From Escherichia coli (GTDB taxonomy: Bacteria > Pseudomonadota > Gammaproteobacteria > Enterobacterales > Enterobacteriaceae), in assembly GCF_003334355.1 (NCBI RefSeq), contig NZ_QOWP01000057.1: a stretch of DNA of 9,895 nucleotides, one strand, 5' to 3'. Position numbers and translations under genes: made by a program. Under the pieces are notes generated by a model that ran no database searches, was not told the DNA's origin, and worked only from the letters and a program-made list of their open reading frames with translations. The number at the start of each line of letters is the position of its first letter. Within the stretch, counting starts at the first letter, position 1. Below, piece after piece: positions 1,179-9,873 of the stretch.

Positions 1179-1321
1179 GGAGACCTTATACAAAAAATAT
1201 AAAATAAGCTACCCATTGCCAAAGACACTATAAGCCTGGCAAAAAATATTACACAACATAAATGCTAATTGTTTATGCGGGCTTTGTATTGCTTTCTGTA
1301 TCCTACAAATGAGTGAAATTT

Positions 1322-2038
1322 ATGAAAAAGGCTAAAATACTTTCTGGCGTATTATTACTGTGCTTTTCGTCACCATTAATTTCTCAGGCTGCGACACTGG
1401 ACGTACGTGGTGGATATCGTAGCGGAAGCCATGCCTATGAGACTCGACTCAAAGTCAGTGAGGGATGGCAAAATGGATGGTGGGCAAGCATGGAAAGTAA
1501 TACCTGGAATACCATTCATGATAATAAAAAGGAAAATGCCGCACTCAATGATGTTCAGGTTGAAGTTAATTACGCGATTAAACTTGATGATCAATGGACG
1601 GTGCGCCCGGGAATGTTAACGCATTTTAGCAGCAACGGCACCCGCTACGGACCCTACGTAAAACTGTCCTGGGACGCGACAAAAGATCTTAATTTTGGCA
1701 TTCGCTATCGTTACGACTGGAAAGCTTACCGACAACAAGACTTATCCGGTGATATGTCTCGTGATAACGTTCATCGTTGGGATGGATATGTCACTTACCA
1801 TATTAATAGTGATTTCACCTTCGCATGGCAAACGACGCTATACAGCAAACAGAACGATTATCGCTATGCAAACCATAAGAAATGGGCGACGGAAAATGCA
1901 TTTGTTCTACAATACCATATGACGCCCGATATTACGCCATACATAGAATATGACTACCTTGACCGTCAGGGTGTTTACAACGGCAGAGATAATTTATCGG
2001 AAAACAGTTATCGCATTGGTGTGTCATTTAAACTGTAG
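1322..2038 (+). CDS. nanC: N-acetylneuraminic acid outer-membrane channel NanC (KdgM-family porin), 238 aa
   Basis: ORF-track frame 1313-2038. Chosen start is the ATG at 1322 (MKKAKILSGVLLLCFSSPLISQA..., signal peptide ending AQA-A); the track start at 1313 is an upstream GTG. Sequence recognised as E. coli NanC (YjhA). Stop TAG 2036-2038. Confidence 0.93.
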   Translation: MKKAKILSGVLLLCFSSPLISQAATLDVRGGYRSGSHAYETRLKVSEGWQNGWWASMESNTWNTIHDNKKENAALNDVQVEVNYAIKLDDQWTVRPGMLTHFSSNGTRYGPYVKLSWDATKDLNFGIRYRYDWKAYRQQDLSGDMSRDNVHRWDGYVTYHINSDFTFAWQTTLYSKQNDYRYANHKKWATENAFVLQYHMTPDITPYIEYDYLDRQGVYNGRDNLSENSYRIGVSFKL

Positions 2039-2057
2039 TAGACAGGAGACAGTCACA

Positions 2058-3164
2058 ATGAATAAAACAATAACGGCGCTTGCTATCATAATGGCTTCAT
2101 TTGCCGCAAACGCGTCTGTATTACCGGAAACTCCTGTGCCATTTAAAAGTGGTACCGGAGCAATTGATAACGACACTGTCTACATTGGTTTAGGTAGCGC
2201 AGGTACAGCATGGTACAAGCTGGATACACAGGCCAAAGATAAAAAATGGACAGCGTTAGCTGCATTCCCTGGTGGACCGAGAGATCAAGCAACCTCTGCA
2301 TTTATTGATGGTAATCTGTATGTGTTTGGCGGCATTGGCAAAAACAGCGAGGGCTTGACTCAGGTATTTAATGACGTACACAAATACAACCCCAAAACCA
2401 ATAGCTGGGTTAAATTGATGTCGCACGCGCCGATGGGCATGGCGGGCCATGTGACTTTTGTACACAACGGCAAGGCTTATGTTACTGGCGGTGTTAACCA
2501 GAATATCTTCAATGGCTATTTTGAAGATCTCAACGAAGCTGGAAAAGATTCAACCACTATAGATAAAATCAACGCCCACTATTTTGACAAAAAAGCAGAA
2601 GATTATTTCTTCAATAAGTTTCTGTTGTCTTTTGATCCCTCTACACAGCAATGGAGTTACGCTGGCGAATCTCCCTGGTACGGAACGGCTGGTGCGGCGG
2701 TTGTGAATAAAGGTGATAAAACCTGGCTTATTAATGGCGAAGCCAAACCAGGATTGCGAACGGATGCCGTATTTGAACTTGATTTCACCGGTAATAATTT
2801 AAAATGGAATAAGCTTGCTCCCGTCGCATCACCAGATGGCGTCGCTGGCGGTTTTGCAGGCATGAGCAATGACTCACTTATATTTGCCGGAGGGGCCGGA
2901 TTCAAAGGTTCACGAGAAAATTACCAGAACGGTAAGAACTATGCGCATGAAGGCCTGAAAAAATCATATAGCGCTGATATTCATCTTTGGCATAACGGGA
3001 AATGGGATAAATCGGGCGAATTATCGCAAGGTCGGGCCTACGGAGTATCATTGCCCTGGAATAATAGTTTATTAATTATTGGCGGTGAAACTGCAGGCGG
3101 CAAAGCGGTGACGGATTCAGTTTTAATTTCTGTGAAGGATAATAAAGTCACAGTACAAAACTAA
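2058..3164 (+). CDS. nanM: N-acetylneuraminate mutarotase NanM (Kelch-repeat beta-propeller, periplasmic), 368 aa
   Basis: ORF-track frame 1950-3164. Chosen start is the ATG at 2058 preceded by AGGAGA (2044-2049); the track start at 1950 overlaps the nanC 3' end. MNKTITALAIIMASFAANASV... signal peptide; recognised as NanM (YjhT). Confidence 0.93.
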   Translation: MNKTITALAIIMASFAANASVLPETPVPFKSGTGAIDNDTVYIGLGSAGTAWYKLDTQAKDKKWTALAAFPGGPRDQATSAFIDGNLYVFGGIGKNSEGLTQVFNDVHKYNPKTNSWVKLMSHAPMGMAGHVTFVHNGKAYVTGGVNQNIFNGYFEDLNEAGKDSTTIDKINAHYFDKKAEDYFFNKFLLSFDPSTQQWSYAGESPWYGTAGAAVVNKGDKTWLINGEAKPGLRTDAVFELDFTGNNLKWNKLAPVASPDGVAGGFAGMSNDSLIFAGGAGFKGSRENYQNGKNYAHEGLKKSYSADIHLWHNGKWDKSGELSQGRAYGVSLPWNNSLLIIGGETAGGKAVTDSVLISVKDNKVTVQN

Positions 3165-3170
3165 CGCTTC

Positions 3171-3192
3171 AGGGCCCCGGTAAAGGGGCCTT
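3171..3192 (+). other. GC-rich stem-loop (AGGGCCCC / GGGGCCTT, loop GGTAAA) in the nanM-nanS intergenic region
   Basis: 8-bp stem read directly from sequence, starting 7 nt after the nanM stop. No clean downstream T-tract, so it looks more like an intra-operon attenuator or RNA-stability hairpin than a strong terminator. Confidence 0.4.
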
Positions 3193-3228
3193 GCTATCAA
3201 TTTGTCATTTGTATTACGCGAAAATTAT

Positions 3229-4209
3229 ATGAACGCAATAATATCGCCCGATTATTACTATGTTCTTACCGTTGCTGGTCAGTCTAATGCCATGGCGTAT
3301 GGCGAAGGACTACCATTACCGGACAAGGAAGATGCGCCTCATCCCAGAATTAAACAATTAGCGAGATTTGCGCATACACATCCCGGAGGCCCGTCATGTC
3401 ACTTTAACGACATTATTCCACTGACTCACTGCCCACACGATGTTCAGGATATGCAGGGTTATCACCATCCTCTGGCAACGAATCATCAAACACAGTACGG
3501 CACCGTTGGCCAGGCACTACATATAGCACGGAAATTACTGCCCTTTATTCCTGATAATGCAGGGGTTCTCATCGTTCCGTGTTGCCGTGGCGGATCGGCT
3601 TTTACCGCGGGCAGCGAAGGGACATATTCAGAACGGCACGGAGCCAGCCATGATGCTTGTCGTTGGGGAACGGATACTCCGCTATACCAGGATTTAGTCA
3701 GCAGAACGCGAGCCGCACTGGCAAAAAATCCGCAGAACAAATTCCTCGGCGTATGCTGGATGCAAGGCGAATTTGACTTAATGACCAGTGACTACGCGTC
3801 ACACCCTCAACACTTTAATCATATGGTTGACGCCTTTCGTAGGGATCTAAAACAATACCATTCTCAGCTTAATAAAATTACTGACGCGCCGTGGTTTTGC
3901 GGCGATACCACCTGGTACTGGAAAGAAAATTTCCCTCATGCGTATGAAGCTATTTATGGCAATTATCAAAATAATGTTCTAGCCAATATTATTTTCGTCG
4001 ACTTCCAGCAACAAGGTGCAAGAGGACTGACGAACGCGCCTGATGAAGATCCGGACGATTTAAGCACGGGATATTACGGTTCAGCGTACCGGTCACCGGA
4101 GAACTGGACGACGGCACTGCGAAGCAGTCATTTCAGCGCGGCAGCCCGTCGAGGGATTATTTCTGACAGGTTTGTAGAAGCAATTTTGCAGTTTTGGCGC
4201 GAAAGGTGA
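3229..4209 (+). CDS. nanS: 9-O-acetyl-N-acetylneuraminate esterase NanS, 326 aa
   Basis: ORF-track frame 3202-4209. Chosen start is the ATG at 3229 (MNAIISPDYYYVLTVAGQSNAMAYGEG...); the track start at 3202 is a TTG. Recognised as NanS (YjhS). Stop TGA 4207-4209. Confidence 0.9.
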   Translation: MNAIISPDYYYVLTVAGQSNAMAYGEGLPLPDKEDAPHPRIKQLARFAHTHPGGPSCHFNDIIPLTHCPHDVQDMQGYHHPLATNHQTQYGTVGQALHIARKLLPFIPDNAGVLIVPCCRGGSAFTAGSEGTYSERHGASHDACRWGTDTPLYQDLVSRTRAALAKNPQNKFLGVCWMQGEFDLMTSDYASHPQHFNHMVDAFRRDLKQYHSQLNKITDAPWFCGDTTWYWKENFPHAYEAIYGNYQNNVLANIIFVDFQQQGARGLTNAPDEDPDDLSTGYYGSAYRSPENWTTALRSSHFSAAARRGIISDRFVEAILQFWRER

Positions 4210-4219
4210 GCGTTCATTA

Positions 4220-4488
4220 ATTTGATTTATTCGCATCCATCAGCGCTTTTAACTCCTCCGGCGTAAACGGTGGTTTGCGTCGGTGCAACATCGCATGGCA
4301 ATTAGGGCACACAGGAAGTAAAAAAACATATGAGATCAAGGTAATATATCTTCGCTTGCAGGCTTGAACCGCAGAAAATTTGCGAGCATGATCGCAATTA
4401 TTTCACTGCCAGGGATATCAATGGCTTCCAGTAAATCGCTGACGAGCCTTTTTTTGCTCTCCAGCAAATCCGTAAGCAGCGTGACCCA
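4220..4488 (-). pseudogene. HNH endonuclease remnant (C-terminal CxxCH zinc-finger region), frameshifted, no start codon
   Basis: - strand frame with codons at 4402..4220 ends ...LISYVFLLPVCPNCHAMLHRRKPPFTPEELKALMDANKSN* (stop 4217-4219). An adjacent - strand frame (4488..4339) gives the protein-like VTLLTDLLESKKRLVSDLLEAIDIPGSEIIAIMLANFLRFKPASEDILP. The two segments are in different frames and both are bounded by stops upstream. Confidence 0.4.
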
Positions 4489-5169: not shown

Positions 5170-5472
5170 ATGGAATTATTAAATACTTATGATGATAAAG
5201 AAACAGCTGAAATATTTTTTGAAAGAATAGAAGGAGAGAAAAGATTAGCAAGTGAACGAGATGCTACGGAAACAGTCTATAACCTCTTCGGGCAACCAAC
5301 CTGGAAAAATTTATATCTTCTTGATATGTTTAACCTAAAAGAATTACAAGGGATTATAGAGTGTAGAAAAAATGGACAGTCTTTCGACCAGGAACGACAC
5401 CGGGAAATAATAAAAATGCTTGAATATGCAGCAAAATCGTTTGACTTAATTATTCCTGCACATTGGCGATAA
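5170..5472 (+). CDS. Hypothetical small protein (100 aa), function unknown
   Basis: ORF-track 5170-5472. AGGAAAA 5 nt upstream of the ATG; followed by a strong hairpin terminator. Sequence (MELLNTYDDKETAEIFFERIEGEKRLASERDATETVYNLFGQPTWKNLYLLD...) not recognised as any family I know. Confidence 0.5.
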   Translation: MELLNTYDDKETAEIFFERIEGEKRLASERDATETVYNLFGQPTWKNLYLLDMFNLKELQGIIECRKNGQSFDQERHREIIKMLEYAAKSFDLIIPAHWR

Positions 5473-5474
5473 TA

Positions 5475-5507
5475 TCTGCTCCATATCTCACAGAGATATG
5501 GAGCAGA
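5475..5507. terminator. Bidirectional intrinsic terminator between convergent genes
   Basis: 15-bp perfect stem (5475-5489 pairs with 5493-5507; TCTGCTCCATATCTC / GAGATATGGAGCAGA) with 3-nt loop ACA. Flanked by A/T-rich tracts on both sides, between the 5170-5472 ORF stop and the 5519 stop of the - strand gene. Confidence 0.7.
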
Positions 5508-5518
5508 ATCATATTTAT

Positions 5519-8500
5519 TTACTCGCTAACCATCTTACTGAATAATTTCTCCAGATACAATGAGCCAGTATCCTCAATAAAAAGCACATTTCTGGCTTCC
5601 AGATTCTCTTTTGAATCAGGTACGTTTACTAAGTCAACATAACAAGTTTCAGAAACAATAAATGCACTTAATGATAAGTTATCATCCGATAATTTATGTT
5701 CAAGATTCTTGATTTCTTTATATAATCCGAACTTTGGATCATCAAGATTAAGATTGCGGATGCCTTTTGGATCAATAAGACTTAACCATTGTTTACCACT
5801 TTTATCATCGACTAACCACAATAAGAAATCCGGATAAAAATTACCCGCAGTAGCAAAGCCCAGGCCTCTATTTTTAGAATCCGCATTTCTTAGCAGATAT
5901 AAACTTTTATCACCAATAATTTTCTGCCCTTTTGTCGAATCAACAAAAGACTGAAGATCATGGACAAAAGTAATCTCACTTGATGCACCCAGTGTTGCCG
6001 GTCGCATTTTTAGCGGTATGTTGGCATTTTTTTCAATCGAAAGAAGTGGATAATAGAGATGTTTATCAAAGGTAATAGCAACCATCCCGGATGCACTCCA
6101 GGATTTTGCTTTACCGATTTCGCCGTCGATGACCAATTGTTGTAATTGTTCCAGCCGACTGGCATATGCCAACCCATCATCAGTTTCTTCGATCTCGAAA
6201 TGGTACATTTTGATCATACCAGGATCATCTTCTTTCACCTGCGTGACTTCATAAAACTGACCTTCATAAGCATTTTTCAATGTGTTGTAAAAGCGATCAG
6301 TATAATCAGTCAGCAGACGAAGCATAATATCTTCCTGCTTAGCAATATCTGCATATTGCTTAATCTCAAGCTCTGAAGCTGGAATCAAAAGGGTATACCA
6401 ACTATTTCCGATCTTTGTCTTACCGGTACAAAAGTCGATCAAACGTTGTTTATCCACACGTAAATTTGACCAGCCGCGTTGTAGTTTATAATTCTGAATG
6501 GCGAGATAAAGCCGATCAAAATCAAACGCACTAATGATTTTATAATCTAACTTCGCTTCATTACGCACGTTAACCGGAGTATTGTCCCCTTTTCTGCTGG
6601 TATCAATCGACTCAAGTTTCGGGTATAGGTCCAGCTTAATATGCGGCTGCTTAATTTTCCCCTGAAAATCAGCAGGAACTTCATACAATTCGGGAAAATA
6701 GACACGTTTAAAGCCGAGTCTTTGATTATCTTTATAACCATCTTTAAGCTTAAGTGTTTTAAGCCTGGTTGCTGGCATATTTGGCCGAGTTTCAAAATTC
6801 AGCTCAAGGATCTCGTCACTTGGCGTAATCCCTTCATCTTCCAGGTATTGTTTAAAGGTTGCCATGTAATCGGCACGTACACCGAATACATTCAGTGTCT
6901 CTAATTTTTCCAGATGCAACCCTTTCGGACGCTCACCGGGTGTACTGCGTTTCAAAGAATAATTGCGACCTTTAAGGCGAACGCCACGACCAAATAACTG
7001 AATGATCTGTGAACCTTCTCCACGGCCCATATTGAGCAATCCCATCGTTGAGACGCGCCAACTGCTCCAGCCTTCAGTAAATTTTCGCGAGCCGATCAAA
7101 ATATGTAGTTGCGAGTCTTTGTCATTTAACGTATGAAAGAGTGACTTCGCAAAATCATCTCTCTGATAATCAAATGTCGTATCCTCTTCACACATTTTGT
7201 AAAGAGACGGTGCATCACCAATATTGATAAGACCAAACGGTTCGGCCTCACCAACCTGTAATGCCAGTTCACCTTTACTGCCTATTAAATTCAGAACTCG
7301 CAGTCTCTGACCTGAGTGAGTGGTGTTAAACAAACGAGAAAGAATATCTGCGTAGATATCTTCCGGGCCGTTCATTAGTGCGGTAAAGCGATTTTCAAAA
7401 ATGTTACGCTCTTTGGTATCAAGAATTCGCGCTTTATTTTCAATGAGATCTTTAATCCACGATTTTGCCTGCGATTCATGATTTAAAAACCATGCTAAAA
7501 AACGCAGTACTGCGTGAATGTCTGAATCTTCACCACTTACGGTGTTACCGACAAAAACCCATAGCGGTTTTTCGATATTAAATTCATTTAATTTTTCTTT
7601 ATTCTTATTGAATAAATATTGTTGCTGATAAAAGCTGAGCAAACACGCGGTAAAATACTCATACCGACGCTCATCTTTTTTATCCTCTTCAGGATTAAGG
7701 TTAAGAATCAGTGATTCTTTACCATAACCATCCTCATAGAAGAATTTATAGGAGTAATCGAACAGAATCGATTTCCCATAGACTTCTCGTGTCGCCTGAA
7801 TACGCGCATCACGTTGTTCTTCGCTGGTTAATGCTATTTGCGCTAACTGTTCTTCGCTCAGTTTACCTAAGGCAGTTGTTTCAAAAAGCAGCTTTGCTTT
7901 TTTCTTCTGAATTTCTGTTTCAACTGCCTCAACATTATTGCCACCGGCCACTGCCTGGCCAAAAGTTGCTGAATATTCAAACGCAAATCCGTCACGCGTT
8001 AATTTGTCACGACGGCGCATCCAGGCACCAGCAGCACTTCCTGTGCCTTTATGCCCTTCATCAATCAGGACCAGATTGTTGCCTTCAAATGCCTCAACGG
8101 CAACAGTTTTGTCACCCATTTCATCGGCAAGTTTATTGATATCAATAACTTCAATCGTGCCTTTAAATGGCGCGGATTTACTCTTATCGAATAACTGGTA
8201 TTGGGTAAATCCTGAGTTTTCCAGTTCATCTAAATGTTGCTTCGATAGGCGTTCATCCGGCGTAAGCAGGATGATTTTATCCGGGTAATGATGGCTATTA
8301 CCGTTCTGGAAATAATGTAAATATTGCAAAATATTGACATGTAATAGCAGTGTCTTACCAGAACCAGTAGCGTTCCAGTATGCCAGTTTATTCAAATCAT
8401 CCAGAACGTATGATTTGAACTGATTAGCCCGGTCTTTTGCTGTTTTATCATTTTCAGCATTGTATGCTGCCAGCTCGTTATTTAGCCCATCGAGTAATTG

Positions 8501-8899
8501 CTGTTTACGGTTGAAGTACCAGTCCAGGTAGATCTCGGTAAACAGAAGCGACAAGTACTGAAAATATTTCATGTTCAGCACTGTGTCTTCTTTACGATTA
8601 CGGTGCTCGGTTATCTGCTGCCAGTGCTGCACGATATTGAGATCGTAACGACGCAGTTCATCGAGATCGATAAGATCGACCTCGAATAAATAGTTACTCA
8701 GCTCATGGAAGAATAAGCTTTGGCCATCTTCATGGATGCCTTCAAAGCGATCCTCGCCTAACCGATTCTTCAAACCTTGCAATGTGCCATCTTTAAAAAA
8801 ATGGAACATAAAGCGGTTTAAAACCAACTGCTTATGAAAGCTCAGCTTGCTGTTAGTCTCTTTTTTAACTGCTTTACCGGTGGTCGGTTTTTTAGCCAT
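5519..8899 (-). CDS. SF2 helicase with C-terminal PD-(D/E)xK nuclease motif; Type III restriction Res-like subunit (1126 aa)
   Basis: Intact ORF. Strong RBS GGAGGAGG 7 nt upstream of the ATG at 8899. Walker A ATGSGKT (aa 177-183; 8351-8371), motif II LIDEGH (aa 278-283; 8051-8062), motif VI QLFGRGVR (aa 634-641; 6977-7000), and C-terminal YPDFLLWLV...LIDPK (aa 1022-1045; 5765-5833) fitting PD-x(n)-(D/E)xK. Helicase-then-nuclease order matches Type III Res. Confidence 0.8.
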   Translation of the reverse strand: MAKKPTTGKAVKKETNSKLSFHKQLVLNRFMFHFFKDGTLQGLKNRLGEDRFEGIHEDGQSLFFHELSNYLFEVDLIDLDELRRYDLNIVQHWQQITEHRNRKEDTVLNMKYFQYLSLLFTEIYLDWYFNRKQQLLDGLNNELAAYNAENDKTAKDRANQFKSYVLDDLNKLAYWNATGSGKTLLLHVNILQYLHYFQNGNSHHYPDKIILLTPDERLSKQHLDELENSGFTQYQLFDKSKSAPFKGTIEVIDINKLADEMGDKTVAVEAFEGNNLVLIDEGHKGTGSAAGAWMRRRDKLTRDGFAFEYSATFGQAVAGGNNVEAVETEIQKKKAKLLFETTALGKLSEEQLAQIALTSEEQRDARIQATREVYGKSILFDYSYKFFYEDGYGKESLILNLNPEEDKKDERRYEYFTACLLSFYQQQYLFNKNKEKLNEFNIEKPLWVFVGNTVSGEDSDIHAVLRFLAWFLNHESQAKSWIKDLIENKARILDTKERNIFENRFTALMNGPEDIYADILSRLFNTTHSGQRLRVLNLIGSKGELALQVGEAEPFGLINIGDAPSLYKMCEEDTTFDYQRDDFAKSLFHTLNDKDSQLHILIGSRKFTEGWSSWRVSTMGLLNMGRGEGSQIIQLFGRGVRLKGRNYSLKRSTPGERPKGLHLEKLETLNVFGVRADYMATFKQYLEDEGITPSDEILELNFETRPNMPATRLKTLKLKDGYKDNQRLGFKRVYFPELYEVPADFQGKIKQPHIKLDLYPKLESIDTSRKGDNTPVNVRNEAKLDYKIISAFDFDRLYLAIQNYKLQRGWSNLRVDKQRLIDFCTGKTKIGNSWYTLLIPASELEIKQYADIAKQEDIMLRLLTDYTDRFYNTLKNAYEGQFYEVTQVKEDDPGMIKMYHFEIEETDDGLAYASRLEQLQQLVIDGEIGKAKSWSASGMVAITFDKHLYYPLLSIEKNANIPLKMRPATLGASSEITFVHDLQSFVDSTKGQKIIGDKSLYLLRNADSKNRGLGFATAGNFYPDFLLWLVDDKSGKQWLSLIDPKGIRNLNLDDPKFGLYKEIKNLEHKLSDDNLSLSAFIVSETCYVDLVNVPDSKENLEARNVLFIEDTGSLYLEKLFSKMVSE

Positions 8900-8901
8900 T
8901 C

Positions 8902-9873
8902 TTAAACCTCCTCCGCAAACATCAGGTTCAAGAATTCAGGTTCGATCTGGCGGATTTTCAGGCTACGAACAATCTCGCCGTCTTCTTCATCAACGGTAAA
9001 GGCGGTAGGTAAGTTATGATCGCCATTGATATAGATAACGTCGAACGTATTTTCTTTTGCATATAAATCGAATCTGTTGGCATATTTATTCAATTCTTCA
9101 TAGCCGATCTTGTCGCAATCGCGCCACAGAATAAGGGTACGCTCGCCAGTTGGTAGCGTTCCTTCAACACGCACATAGCCACGTTCGATATTGGATTCGA
9201 TGGATTTCACATGTAAGCCAATGAGATAGTTGAAAGTTTCAACTAAATCGATGTTCTTACGCTCAGTAGCACCTGCGGAATCCGTTGTAACATCCATTTC
9301 GTAGTTAAATGGTTTTTTGAAATTATCAGTATTGAGTAGTGAGCCTTTGCTTTCTGTTTCAAGCATATAGTTAAGAACATAATCCTCTCGAATTTCTTTA
9401 AGATCGTCGAAAAGATCCTTTGTTGTTTCAGTACGTTTCAGTGCTATATTGTTAAGAGTATCCTCAAAACTCTCAATTTTAATATATTTTATTAATGTCT
9501 GCTCAACTGGATTACAGCTTAGTGCTTTTCCATACTTCCAGTCAGTTGTAAAAATAGCTTTTTTTACTCTAGGCAAGGTAACAGAATAAAAATATTCACC
9601 TTGTTCGACCAAGCTAAATTTTCGAAAACCATTATCATCCCTATTCATATCTACCACTGCATGCCCTGTAGTACCAGAGCCAGCAAAATAGTCTAAGAAA
9701 TGAGCATACTTCGAATTACTAAGCGACTCTAAACATTCCTTAACCGCATAAATACTTTTTGGAAAAGAAAAATTAATCTGAGTCACGTTAAACAAACTAT
9801 TTAATAGTTCCGAACCATTGAACCGCCCCGGGTTTCCTGGAGAGTGTTTTATCTGTGAACTCAGGCTGCCAGA
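8902..9873 (-). CDS. Type III Mod-like N6/N4 DNA methyltransferase, C-terminal portion (AdoMet motif I plus C-terminal domain); reading frame interrupted upstream
   Basis: Open frame 9873..8902 contains FSFPKS...LDYFAGSGTTGHAV (motif I at 9667-9693) followed by RKFSLVEQGEYF, the pattern seen in beta-class and Type III Mod methyltransferases. The stop TAA overlaps the res RBS with only a 2-nt gap to the res ATG. In-frame stop at 9874-9876; a different frame is open 9800-9895. The catalytic DPPY-type motif is not in the window. Confidence 0.65.
   Translation of the reverse strand, partial: SGSLSSQIKHSPGNPGRFNGSELLNSLFNVTQINFSFPKSIYAVKECLESLSNSKYAHFLDYFAGSGTTGHAVVDMNRDDNGFRKFSLVEQGEYFYSVTLPRVKKAIFTTDWKYGKALSCNPVEQTLIKYIKIESFEDTLNNIALKRTETTKDLFDDLKEIREDYVLNYMLETESKGSLLNTDNFKKPFNYEMDVTTDSAGATERKNIDLVETFNYLIGLHVKSIESNIERGYVRVEGTLPTGERTLILWRDCDKIGYEELNKYANRFDLYAKENTFDVIYINGDHNLPTAFTVDEEDGEIVRSLKIRQIEPEFLNLMFAEEV

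Follow-up and report, generated by a model that had tools for sequence, protein, structure and literature searches.

In the 3' protective model of differential decay, an endonuclease cuts the poorly protected downstream part of a message and exonucleases stall at a hairpin (Dar and Sorek 2018, PMC5927463). The hairpin between nanM and nanS in the sialic acid operon of Escherichia coli resembles this class, with its malE-malF example, in being a stable stem-loop placed just 3' of the cistrons proposed as stabilised, inside a co-transcribed operon. It is also like members of the class in being conserved in relatives, in having a strong ribosome-binding site upstream and a weak one downstream, and in lacking the U-tract of a terminator. 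Both the position and stability of the hairpin and its conservation, in nanM lineages down to 68% protein identity, are those of a 3' protective element. Unlike malE-malF, whose element is made up of REP repeats with hundreds of copies, the nan hairpin is unique in the genome, and unlike most of the structures in the 2018 survey, which lie inside the downstream open reading frame, it is intergenic.

The hairpin also shares features with intrinsic terminators, namely a GC-rich 9-bp stem, a 6-nt loop, a position a few nucleotides past a stop codon and a moderately U-rich sequence downstream, and homologous hairpins carry U-tracts in some relatives. It differs from them in that the 8 nt past the stem contain only 3-4 U, the tail starts with CUAU, and the downstream gene depends on read-through. 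Finally, the hairpin recalls papBA-type processing by RNase E in its intercistronic position within an E. coli operon and in the AU-rich single-stranded RNA on either side of it, but here the conservation follows the upstream nanM and the downstream cistron looks poorly translated. Most likely, the nan hairpin represents operon fine-tuning of a well-known kind, not a new one, and is itself a new example of the intercistronic protective or attenuating class.

The nanM-nanS junction and its hairpin

The window, which is the whole stretch of 9,895 nucleotides that was analysed, carries nanC, nanM and nanS as consecutive + strand genes of the sialic acid operon on a segment of the E. coli chromosome. 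Strain M217 has the same sequence as positions 2900-3500 (100% identity), and this segment has matches in 5,053 of 5,426 complete E. coli genomes. At the identical locus, RefSeq annotates nanC, nanM and a sialate O-acetylesterase, the latter being named nanS in some genomes, and this annotation agrees with the NCBIfam epimerase call in supporting the gene names nanM and nanS of the original prediction. According to Vimr's review, the three genes are a single operon co-induced under the control of NanR, whose operator is defined as three GGTATA repeats (PMC3658417). A NanR-operator-like repeat has one match in the window, with none expected by chance. The features of the locus are as follows.

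884-898, + strand: NanR-operator-like GGTATA repeat GGTATAACAGGTATA, upstream of nanC, from the operator search
1322-2038, + strand: nanC, cistron 1, a KdgM-family outer-membrane channel, from the RefSeq annotation of the identical locus
2058-3164, + strand: nanM, cistron 2, N-acetylneuraminate epimerase (NCBIfam NF010730, 606 bits), with its stop codon TAA at 3162-3164
3170-3178, + strand: 5' arm of the hairpin, CAGGGCCCC, from sequence and folding
3179-3184, + strand: loop of the hairpin, GGTAAA (in RNA, GGUAAA), from sequence and folding
3185-3193, + strand: 3' arm of the hairpin, GGGGCCTTG (in RNA, GGGGCCUUG), from sequence and folding
3194-3228, + strand: AU-rich (74%) spacer, mostly unpaired, from folding and motif scan
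3229-4209, + strand: nanS, cistron 3, sialate 9-O-acetylesterase, intact with 326 codons, ATG at 3229

The Shine-Dalgarno sequence of nanM, AGGAG, is strong (anti-Shine-Dalgarno duplex of -7.4 kcal/mol), whereas none was found for the nanS ATG at 3229 (duplex of 0.1 kcal/mol). An in-frame TTG at 3202 would lengthen the nanS reading frame by nine codons (3202-3228); it likewise has no Shine-Dalgarno sequence and is probably meaningless as a start. In most E. coli, RefSeq/PGAP calls the chromosomal nanS an 'incomplete, missing C-terminus' pseudogene of 345-615 nt, and the same call is made in the K-12-derived MC4100, despite an intact reading frame of 326 codons (in the window, at 4330-5310 of L002 and in L007-L014). 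A guess at the cause is that the model behind the annotation is geared to the prophage NanS-p proteins, which are longer. At the other end of the operon, three divergent Escherichia (L004, L005 and L006) gave no tblastn match to NanC in the 3 kb that precede nanM, and nanC is thus absent or displaced in these lineages.

From the end of nanM to the start of nanS, the junction reads TAA (3162-3164), CGCTT, CAGGGCCCC, GGTAAA, GGGGCCTTG, CTATCAATTTGTCATTTGTATTACGCGAAAATTAT and ATG (3229). The arms form a 9-bp stem, closed at its base by C3170-G3193, with seven G-C pairs, one A-U pair and one G·U pair (G3172·U3191), which with the 6-nt loop gives an element of 24 nt. The 8-bp G/C-rich stem that had first been noticed at 3171-3192 is real and gains a ninth pair, C3170-G3193, which can be read from the sequence. 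Counted from the nanM stop, the stem starts after some 5-7 nt, and 35 nt lie between its end and the nanS ATG, in agreement with the spacing given earlier for the 8-bp stem (7 nt from the stop and ~37 nt to the start).

The folding energy, which had been proposed as a check, speaks for the hairpin: ViennaRNA gives -15.8 kcal/mol for 3171-3192 and -18.8 kcal/mol for 3160-3205. In this strain, the hairpin has a free energy of -18.3 to -18.8 kcal/mol and a z score of -2.6 to -2.8, and equally good folding is reached in one or two of 200 shuffles (ViennaRNA). It is retained in all of the larger contexts folded, with an unpaired probability of 0.02 for the stem in a context of 96 nt. Among the simple hairpins of the + strand in a window-wide scan it ranks second in stability, and when the whole 9.9-kb window is dinucleotide-shuffled 100 times, a simple hairpin of -18 kcal/mol or better arises on either strand in only three of the shuffles.

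The tail after the stem (CUAUCAAUUUGU) has three U in its first 8 nt, and at most four when the 8-nt window is offset by 1-2 nt; six U fall within the first 12 nt (CUAUCAAUUUGUCAUUU). Its first four bases are CUAU. The terminator scan called for at least five T in an 8-nt window beginning 0-2 nt past the stem, and the hairpin is absent from the 15 terminator-like sites that it returned in the window. Thus, the description of the hairpin as one without a clean U-tract is accurate, its 3-4 U in 8 nt being below the five in eight of the scan. The stem and the loop are within the dimensions of an intrinsic terminator (stem of 5-14 bp, loop of 3-8 nt) and the tail is short of its U-tract. All Escherichia variants of the junction have 2-4 U in the 8 nt after the stem.

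In the 64-nt interval between nanM and nanS (3165-3228), the promoter scan had no match and the NanR operator was likewise absent. Because nanS has neither a promoter-like site nor a NanR operator in this spacer and is part of one operon co-induced with nanC and nanM (PMC3658417), it must be transcribed through the hairpin, which on this reasoning should not be a full terminator. The RNase E motif RN|WUU is matched three times in the 35-nt spacer downstream of the stem (3199, 3211 and 3222), as AU composition alone predicts. Sequestration of the nanS ribosome-binding site by the hairpin was considered and rejected, the stem being 35 nt from the ATG and the spacer mostly unpaired. As for 3' ends, the nan operon was presumably repressed in the LB or glucose media that were used in one E. 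coli Term-seq study. The supplement of this study, read with that presumption, has no 3' end at the nanM-nanS junction (PMC7815308).

Conservation and covariation of the hairpin

About 5,040 of the 5,426 E. coli genomes have the hairpin, in a single copy each. A search with the 64-nt spacer gave 5,042 places, spread over 5,037 genomes (median one and maximum two per genome), and no second near-exact copy was found within genomes. A dispersed repeat of the REP/BIME type was rejected on this copy number, the element being single-copy. Rfam 15 has no match at gathering score in the whole window.

For the study of variation, nanM-nanS junctions were gathered from annotated genomes and from a metagenome scan that was anchored on the last nanM and the first nanS codons and left the hairpin unconstrained; a scan of the genome collection with NanM yielded four loci only. 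The set comprises 103 junctions with 24 distinct spacers. The commonest stem in E. coli is a perfect one of 9 bp (CAGGGCCCC/GGGGCCCTG, -21.0 kcal/mol), most E. coli having C at position 3191, and the U3191 variant of the window, with its G·U pair, is found at 8 of the 103 junctions. Compensatory double changes have taken place at two pairs, C7>U with G7'>A (L003, L056 and the L016 group) and, independently, C8>U with G8'>A (L004). Three further changes are one-sided, all of them C>U and all yielding G·U on the mRNA strand (the window, L082 and L062/L087). The outer A-U pair is broken in two singletons (L028 and L066), and disruptive substitutions in the inner seven pairs are not found among the 103 junctions. 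A recurrent loss of 1 nt in the GGGG run (window 3185-3188), present at 9 of the 103 junctions, re-registers the hairpin to an 8-bp stem and a 7-nt loop with a free energy of -15.8 kcal/mol. All natural variants are at -15.8 kcal/mol or better, with the exception of one low-coverage contig.

When the 20 distinct spacers without the G-run deletion are aligned, 98.9% of the cells are paired, against 13-64% in slid controls, and the double changes at two pairs are matched by 12 of 500 shuffles. In E69 (L003), the stem is saved by a compensatory change while the tail has been rewritten to CGCUCAAUGGCU, with two U in eight, implying that the conserved unit is the hairpin alone and not the hairpin together with its tail.

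Rearrangement end points cluster at the hairpin. In strain fS149a (L015, ~427-443), an IS1 lies directly next to the final base of the 3' arm. In E. whittamii and Escherichia sp. E1V33, neither of which has a nanS open reading frame, a deletion (L005 4113-4200 and L006) fuses the CAGGG of the 5' arm to about codon 27 of nanS. The hairpin that these two carry (TTTTCAGG...CCTGAAAA) was considered as an ancestral terminator that predates nanS and rejected, since tblastn detects remnants of nanS (aa 27-53 and 265-325); it is an accidental product of the deletion, whose left break lies inside the 5' arm.

Beyond E. coli, NanM homologues were searched for and their contigs inspected 3' of the nanM stop. 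Where NanM identity is 68% or more, most lineages have a hairpin that begins 5-7 nt past this stop, regardless of the downstream gene. The relatives are listed here with the NanM identity, the gene order and the hairpin.

L106, E. albertii: NanM 85%; nanS pseudogene; GGCUCCU/AGGAGCC, -11.2 kcal/mol
L108: NanM 86%; nanX-nanC-nanM with no nanS downstream; CAGGGCUCC/GGAGCCCUG, -19.0 kcal/mol
L109, Salmonella Eastbourne: NanM 78%; nanC-nanM-nanX-nanY; imperfect stem followed by U7, tail AAUUUUUUUC
L110: NanM 77%; nanC-nanM-nanX-nanY; GACUCUC/GAGAGUC, tail CUACAUUUUAUUUU
L113: NanM 71%; nanE-nanK-nanC-nanM and then a SASA (nanS-like) gene; AGCCCGGAG/CUCCGGGCU, -17.7 kcal/mol, 9-bp GC stem, no U-tract
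L115: NanM 68%; nanC-nanM with no nanS-like gene called downstream; hairpin of the L113 type with one U·G pair

The sequence of the L113 hairpin is unrelated to that of E. coli and cannot be aligned with it, yet the hairpin has the same position after the nanM stop. Above 60% identity the exceptions are L112 (84%), in which a degenerate stem is followed by U8, and Aeromonas sobria (67%), which has no hairpin; L116, at 59%, has a strong hairpin of 13 bp. Hairpins beyond shuffle expectation were not found in K. oxytoca, S. diarizonae and the E. coli nan-9-like paralogue (at most 57%) or in A. sobria, and the hairpin is therefore not universal to nanM. The loop varies in the relatives (AGUAAA, AGCAAA, GGUUAG and GUGCA), and this freedom argues against sequence-specific recognition of the loop. 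Since relatives with a nanS pseudogene, with no nanS or with nanX-nanY in its place still have the hairpin, the element is best assigned to the 3' end of nanM, and not to its junction with nanS in particular.

A covariance model built from the E. coli-type spacers and searched at a cut-off of E up to 0.05 recovers L106 (E = 4e-12), L108 (3e-6) and L110 (0.02); the reverse-strand matches that came with a search at E up to 10 were discarded as spurious. Plain MAFFT alignment of the distant hairpins left L110, L106 and L109 out of register, and the covariance-model alignment was used instead. With E. albertii, L108 and L110 included, 96.8% of the cells are paired against 31-56% in slid controls, in an alignment that is fitted to the structure and leans towards it. 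In the same alignment, five of the nine pairs have changed on both sides (G-C>A-U, G-C>C-G and, three times, C-G>U-A), which none of 500 shuffles reaches. The Escherichia set, which is free of this bias, points the same way. The independent covariation events are few, about 6-7 double changes across about five lineages.

All four one-sided changes in the core (the window, L082, L062, and L115 relative to L113) are C>U; in the + strand RNA each of them gives a G·U pair, whereas an A·C mismatch would result on the other strand or in a cruciform of the DNA. With n = 4 and p ~0.06 under symmetric transitions, this is suggestive of a hairpin that acts in the + strand, mRNA-sense RNA, and the strand so indicated agrees with the direction of transcription. 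The rarity of such a hairpin in shuffles, its genome-wide occurrence, the compensatory changes and its persistence across nanM loci all argue against a chance palindrome, and the hairpin is very probably an RNA structure kept by selection. The original prediction held that the hairpin may set differential expression within the nanCMS transcript, by partial termination or stabilisation of a 3' end, and may not be a full terminator. A selected, mRNA-sense structure short of a full terminator is what the compensatory and G·U-only changes and the lack of a promoter or operator for nanS support; the differential expression is carried forward below as a proposal.

Some of the relatives differ from E. 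coli in the arrangement of their nan genes. In L109 (1771-6061) and L110 (2056-5873), nanX (MFS) and nanY (a GFO/IDH oxidoreductase) come directly after nanC-nanM, whereas E. coli K-12 has these two in an operon of their own, and L109 has a second GC hairpin, CCCACCTCCC AGG GAGGTGGG, between nanM and nanX. The L113 cluster, nanE-nanK-nanC-nanM-nanS(SASA), is located at 1267-4132 in Logan ERR13373953, which indicates that the order nanC-nanM-nanS is not confined to E. coli, contrary to the suggestion of the 2013 review.

Proposed role in the nanCMS transcript

The role proposed here, with about an even chance of being right, is that the hairpin blocks 3'-to-5' exonucleases, perhaps with some weak termination in addition, so that nanC-nanM exceeds nanS. 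Since the tail has no U-tract, RNA polymerase would mostly pass through the hairpin. RNase E would preferentially attack the downstream part of the transcript, that is, the AU-rich unpaired spacer and the nanS cistron, which is probably poorly covered by ribosomes because it has no Shine-Dalgarno sequence. PNPase and RNase II would then degrade the nanS part and stall at the hairpin of -18 to -21 kcal/mol, leaving a stable nanC-nanM message, and the polarity may be reinforced by a minor share of transcripts that truly terminate at the hairpin. The outcome would be more NanC and NanM than NanS from a single NanR-controlled promoter. In this scheme, what we infer is which nucleases act, where the 3' ends lie and how expression is affected. 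The nan genes are not among the entries of the differential-decay supplement tables (PMC5927463), and in an acid-stress transcriptome they appear only as a pooled range of 2.1-3.2-fold.

If this role is true, it would explain how the sialic acid porin and mutarotase on the one hand and the O-acetylesterase on the other are made in unequal amounts from one NanR-controlled promoter, and it would add a single-copy case with covariation support to the intercistronic protective or attenuating hairpins. In nanCMS constructs, biosensors and annotation pipelines, the 24-nt element is best treated as part of the 3' region of nanM, which is of modest practical relevance.

The distance of 5-7 nt between the nanM stop and the hairpin is constant even where the sequence of the stem has been replaced (L113 and L115), and this leaves room for a translation-sensitive variant, in which the element would be a sensor of nanM translation. 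A ribosome at the nanM stop or trailing to it would cover and melt the 5' arm, and either read-through into the next gene or the protection of the nanC-nanM 3' end would then depend on the coupling of translation and transcription. Such a sensor, a translation-gated attenuator without a leader peptide, seems unlikely.

The main alternative to protection, though a tentative one, is a leaky intrinsic (Rho-independent) terminator or attenuator, at which some polymerases would stop, so that fewer transcripts of nanS are made and the hairpin is the 3'-terminal hairpin of nanC-nanM. The GC-rich 9-bp stem and 6-nt loop are suited to such a function, the tail is only one U under the threshold of the scan, real runs of U follow the equivalent hairpins in L109, L110 and L112 (U8), and in L108 the hairpin follows the last gene of the cluster. 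Given the U-tracts of L109, L110 and L112, termination may even be the primary or the ancestral role. In E. coli terminators, however, the proximal U's matter most, and with a tail that begins CUAU the efficiency should be low; in addition, E69 keeps the stem with only two U in eight, the hairpins of L113 and L115 are also without a U-tract, and nanS needs transcription through the hairpin. A protective structure is favoured over a leaky terminator because it is the stem that is kept and not the tail, because nanM has a strong Shine-Dalgarno sequence and nanS none, and because the spacer is AU-rich and unpaired. Protection and leaky termination would both lower nanS relative to nanC-nanM, and the two can coexist.

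The reverse polarity, as in papBA, would arise if RNase E cut at the end of nanM and the hairpin shielded the 5' end of nanS, thereby stabilising nanS and not nanC-nanM. Although processed transcripts led by a hairpin are a documented route of differential decay (PMC5927463) and the sequence just 5' of the hairpin (ACAAAACUAACGCUU) is AU-rich, this is improbable at the nan locus. The hairpin is kept with a nanS pseudogene in E. albertii (L106), without nanS in L108 and before unrelated genes elsewhere, and its distance is constant to the nanM stop and varies to the downstream start (35 nt in E. coli, ~24-25 nt in L113, ~50 nt in L110). A nanS without a Shine-Dalgarno sequence fits a weakly expressed, unstable cistron better than one that is protected.

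That the hairpin has no function, being a chance or hitch-hiking GC palindrome such as a scar from the joining of nanS to nanC-nanM, is very unlikely. The junction region is indeed plastic, with the end points of the deletion and of IS1 at the hairpin, and nanM genes of 57% identity or less are mostly without it. Against this stand the compensatory double changes at five of nine pairs, the single changes that give G·U only, pairing of 97-99% despite diverged flanks, the stability reached in only 3 of 100 shuffles of the window, and the second, non-alignable hairpin that L113 and L115 have at this position. A DNA-level element (a protein-binding palindrome, a cruciform or a dispersed repeat of the REP/BIME kind) is hardly credible, in spite of the perfect inverted repeat in most strains and the rearrangement end points nearby, for the hairpin has a single copy per genome and no Rfam family, the tolerated single changes are G·U in the + strand RNA and mismatches in DNA, and both arms are wholly replaced in L110 and L113 with the pairing kept, which speaks against sequence-specific recognition by a protein.

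Other features of the window

The most stable hairpin of the window, at 5475-5507, is a perfect one of 15 bp with a free energy of -24.4 kcal/mol. It is situated between the ends of an open reading frame at 5170-5472 (+) and of res (-), and looks like a bidirectional terminator. At 4258-4283, 49 nt past the nanS stop, there is a GC hairpin without a T-tract (CCGGCGTAAACGGTGGTTTGCGTCGG, -16.4 kcal/mol); further on, at 4380-4397, is a palindrome that resembles a terminator and is flanked by T-rich sequence on both strands. A type III restriction-modification system occupies the region downstream of nanS (5519-8899, - strand, and 8902-9795, - strand). Its Res protein has 1,126 aa (PADLOC REase_III, 2316 bits; Pfam ResIII), and the Mod methyltransferase is represented by its C-terminal part only and appears to run off the end of the window; NCBIfam gave no match for Res or Mod. 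The Term-seq supplement of PMC7815308 contains an RNA 3' end antisense to nanS, at MG1655 4536716 (+), and in K-12 the 3' part of nanS is thus crossed by antisense transcription.
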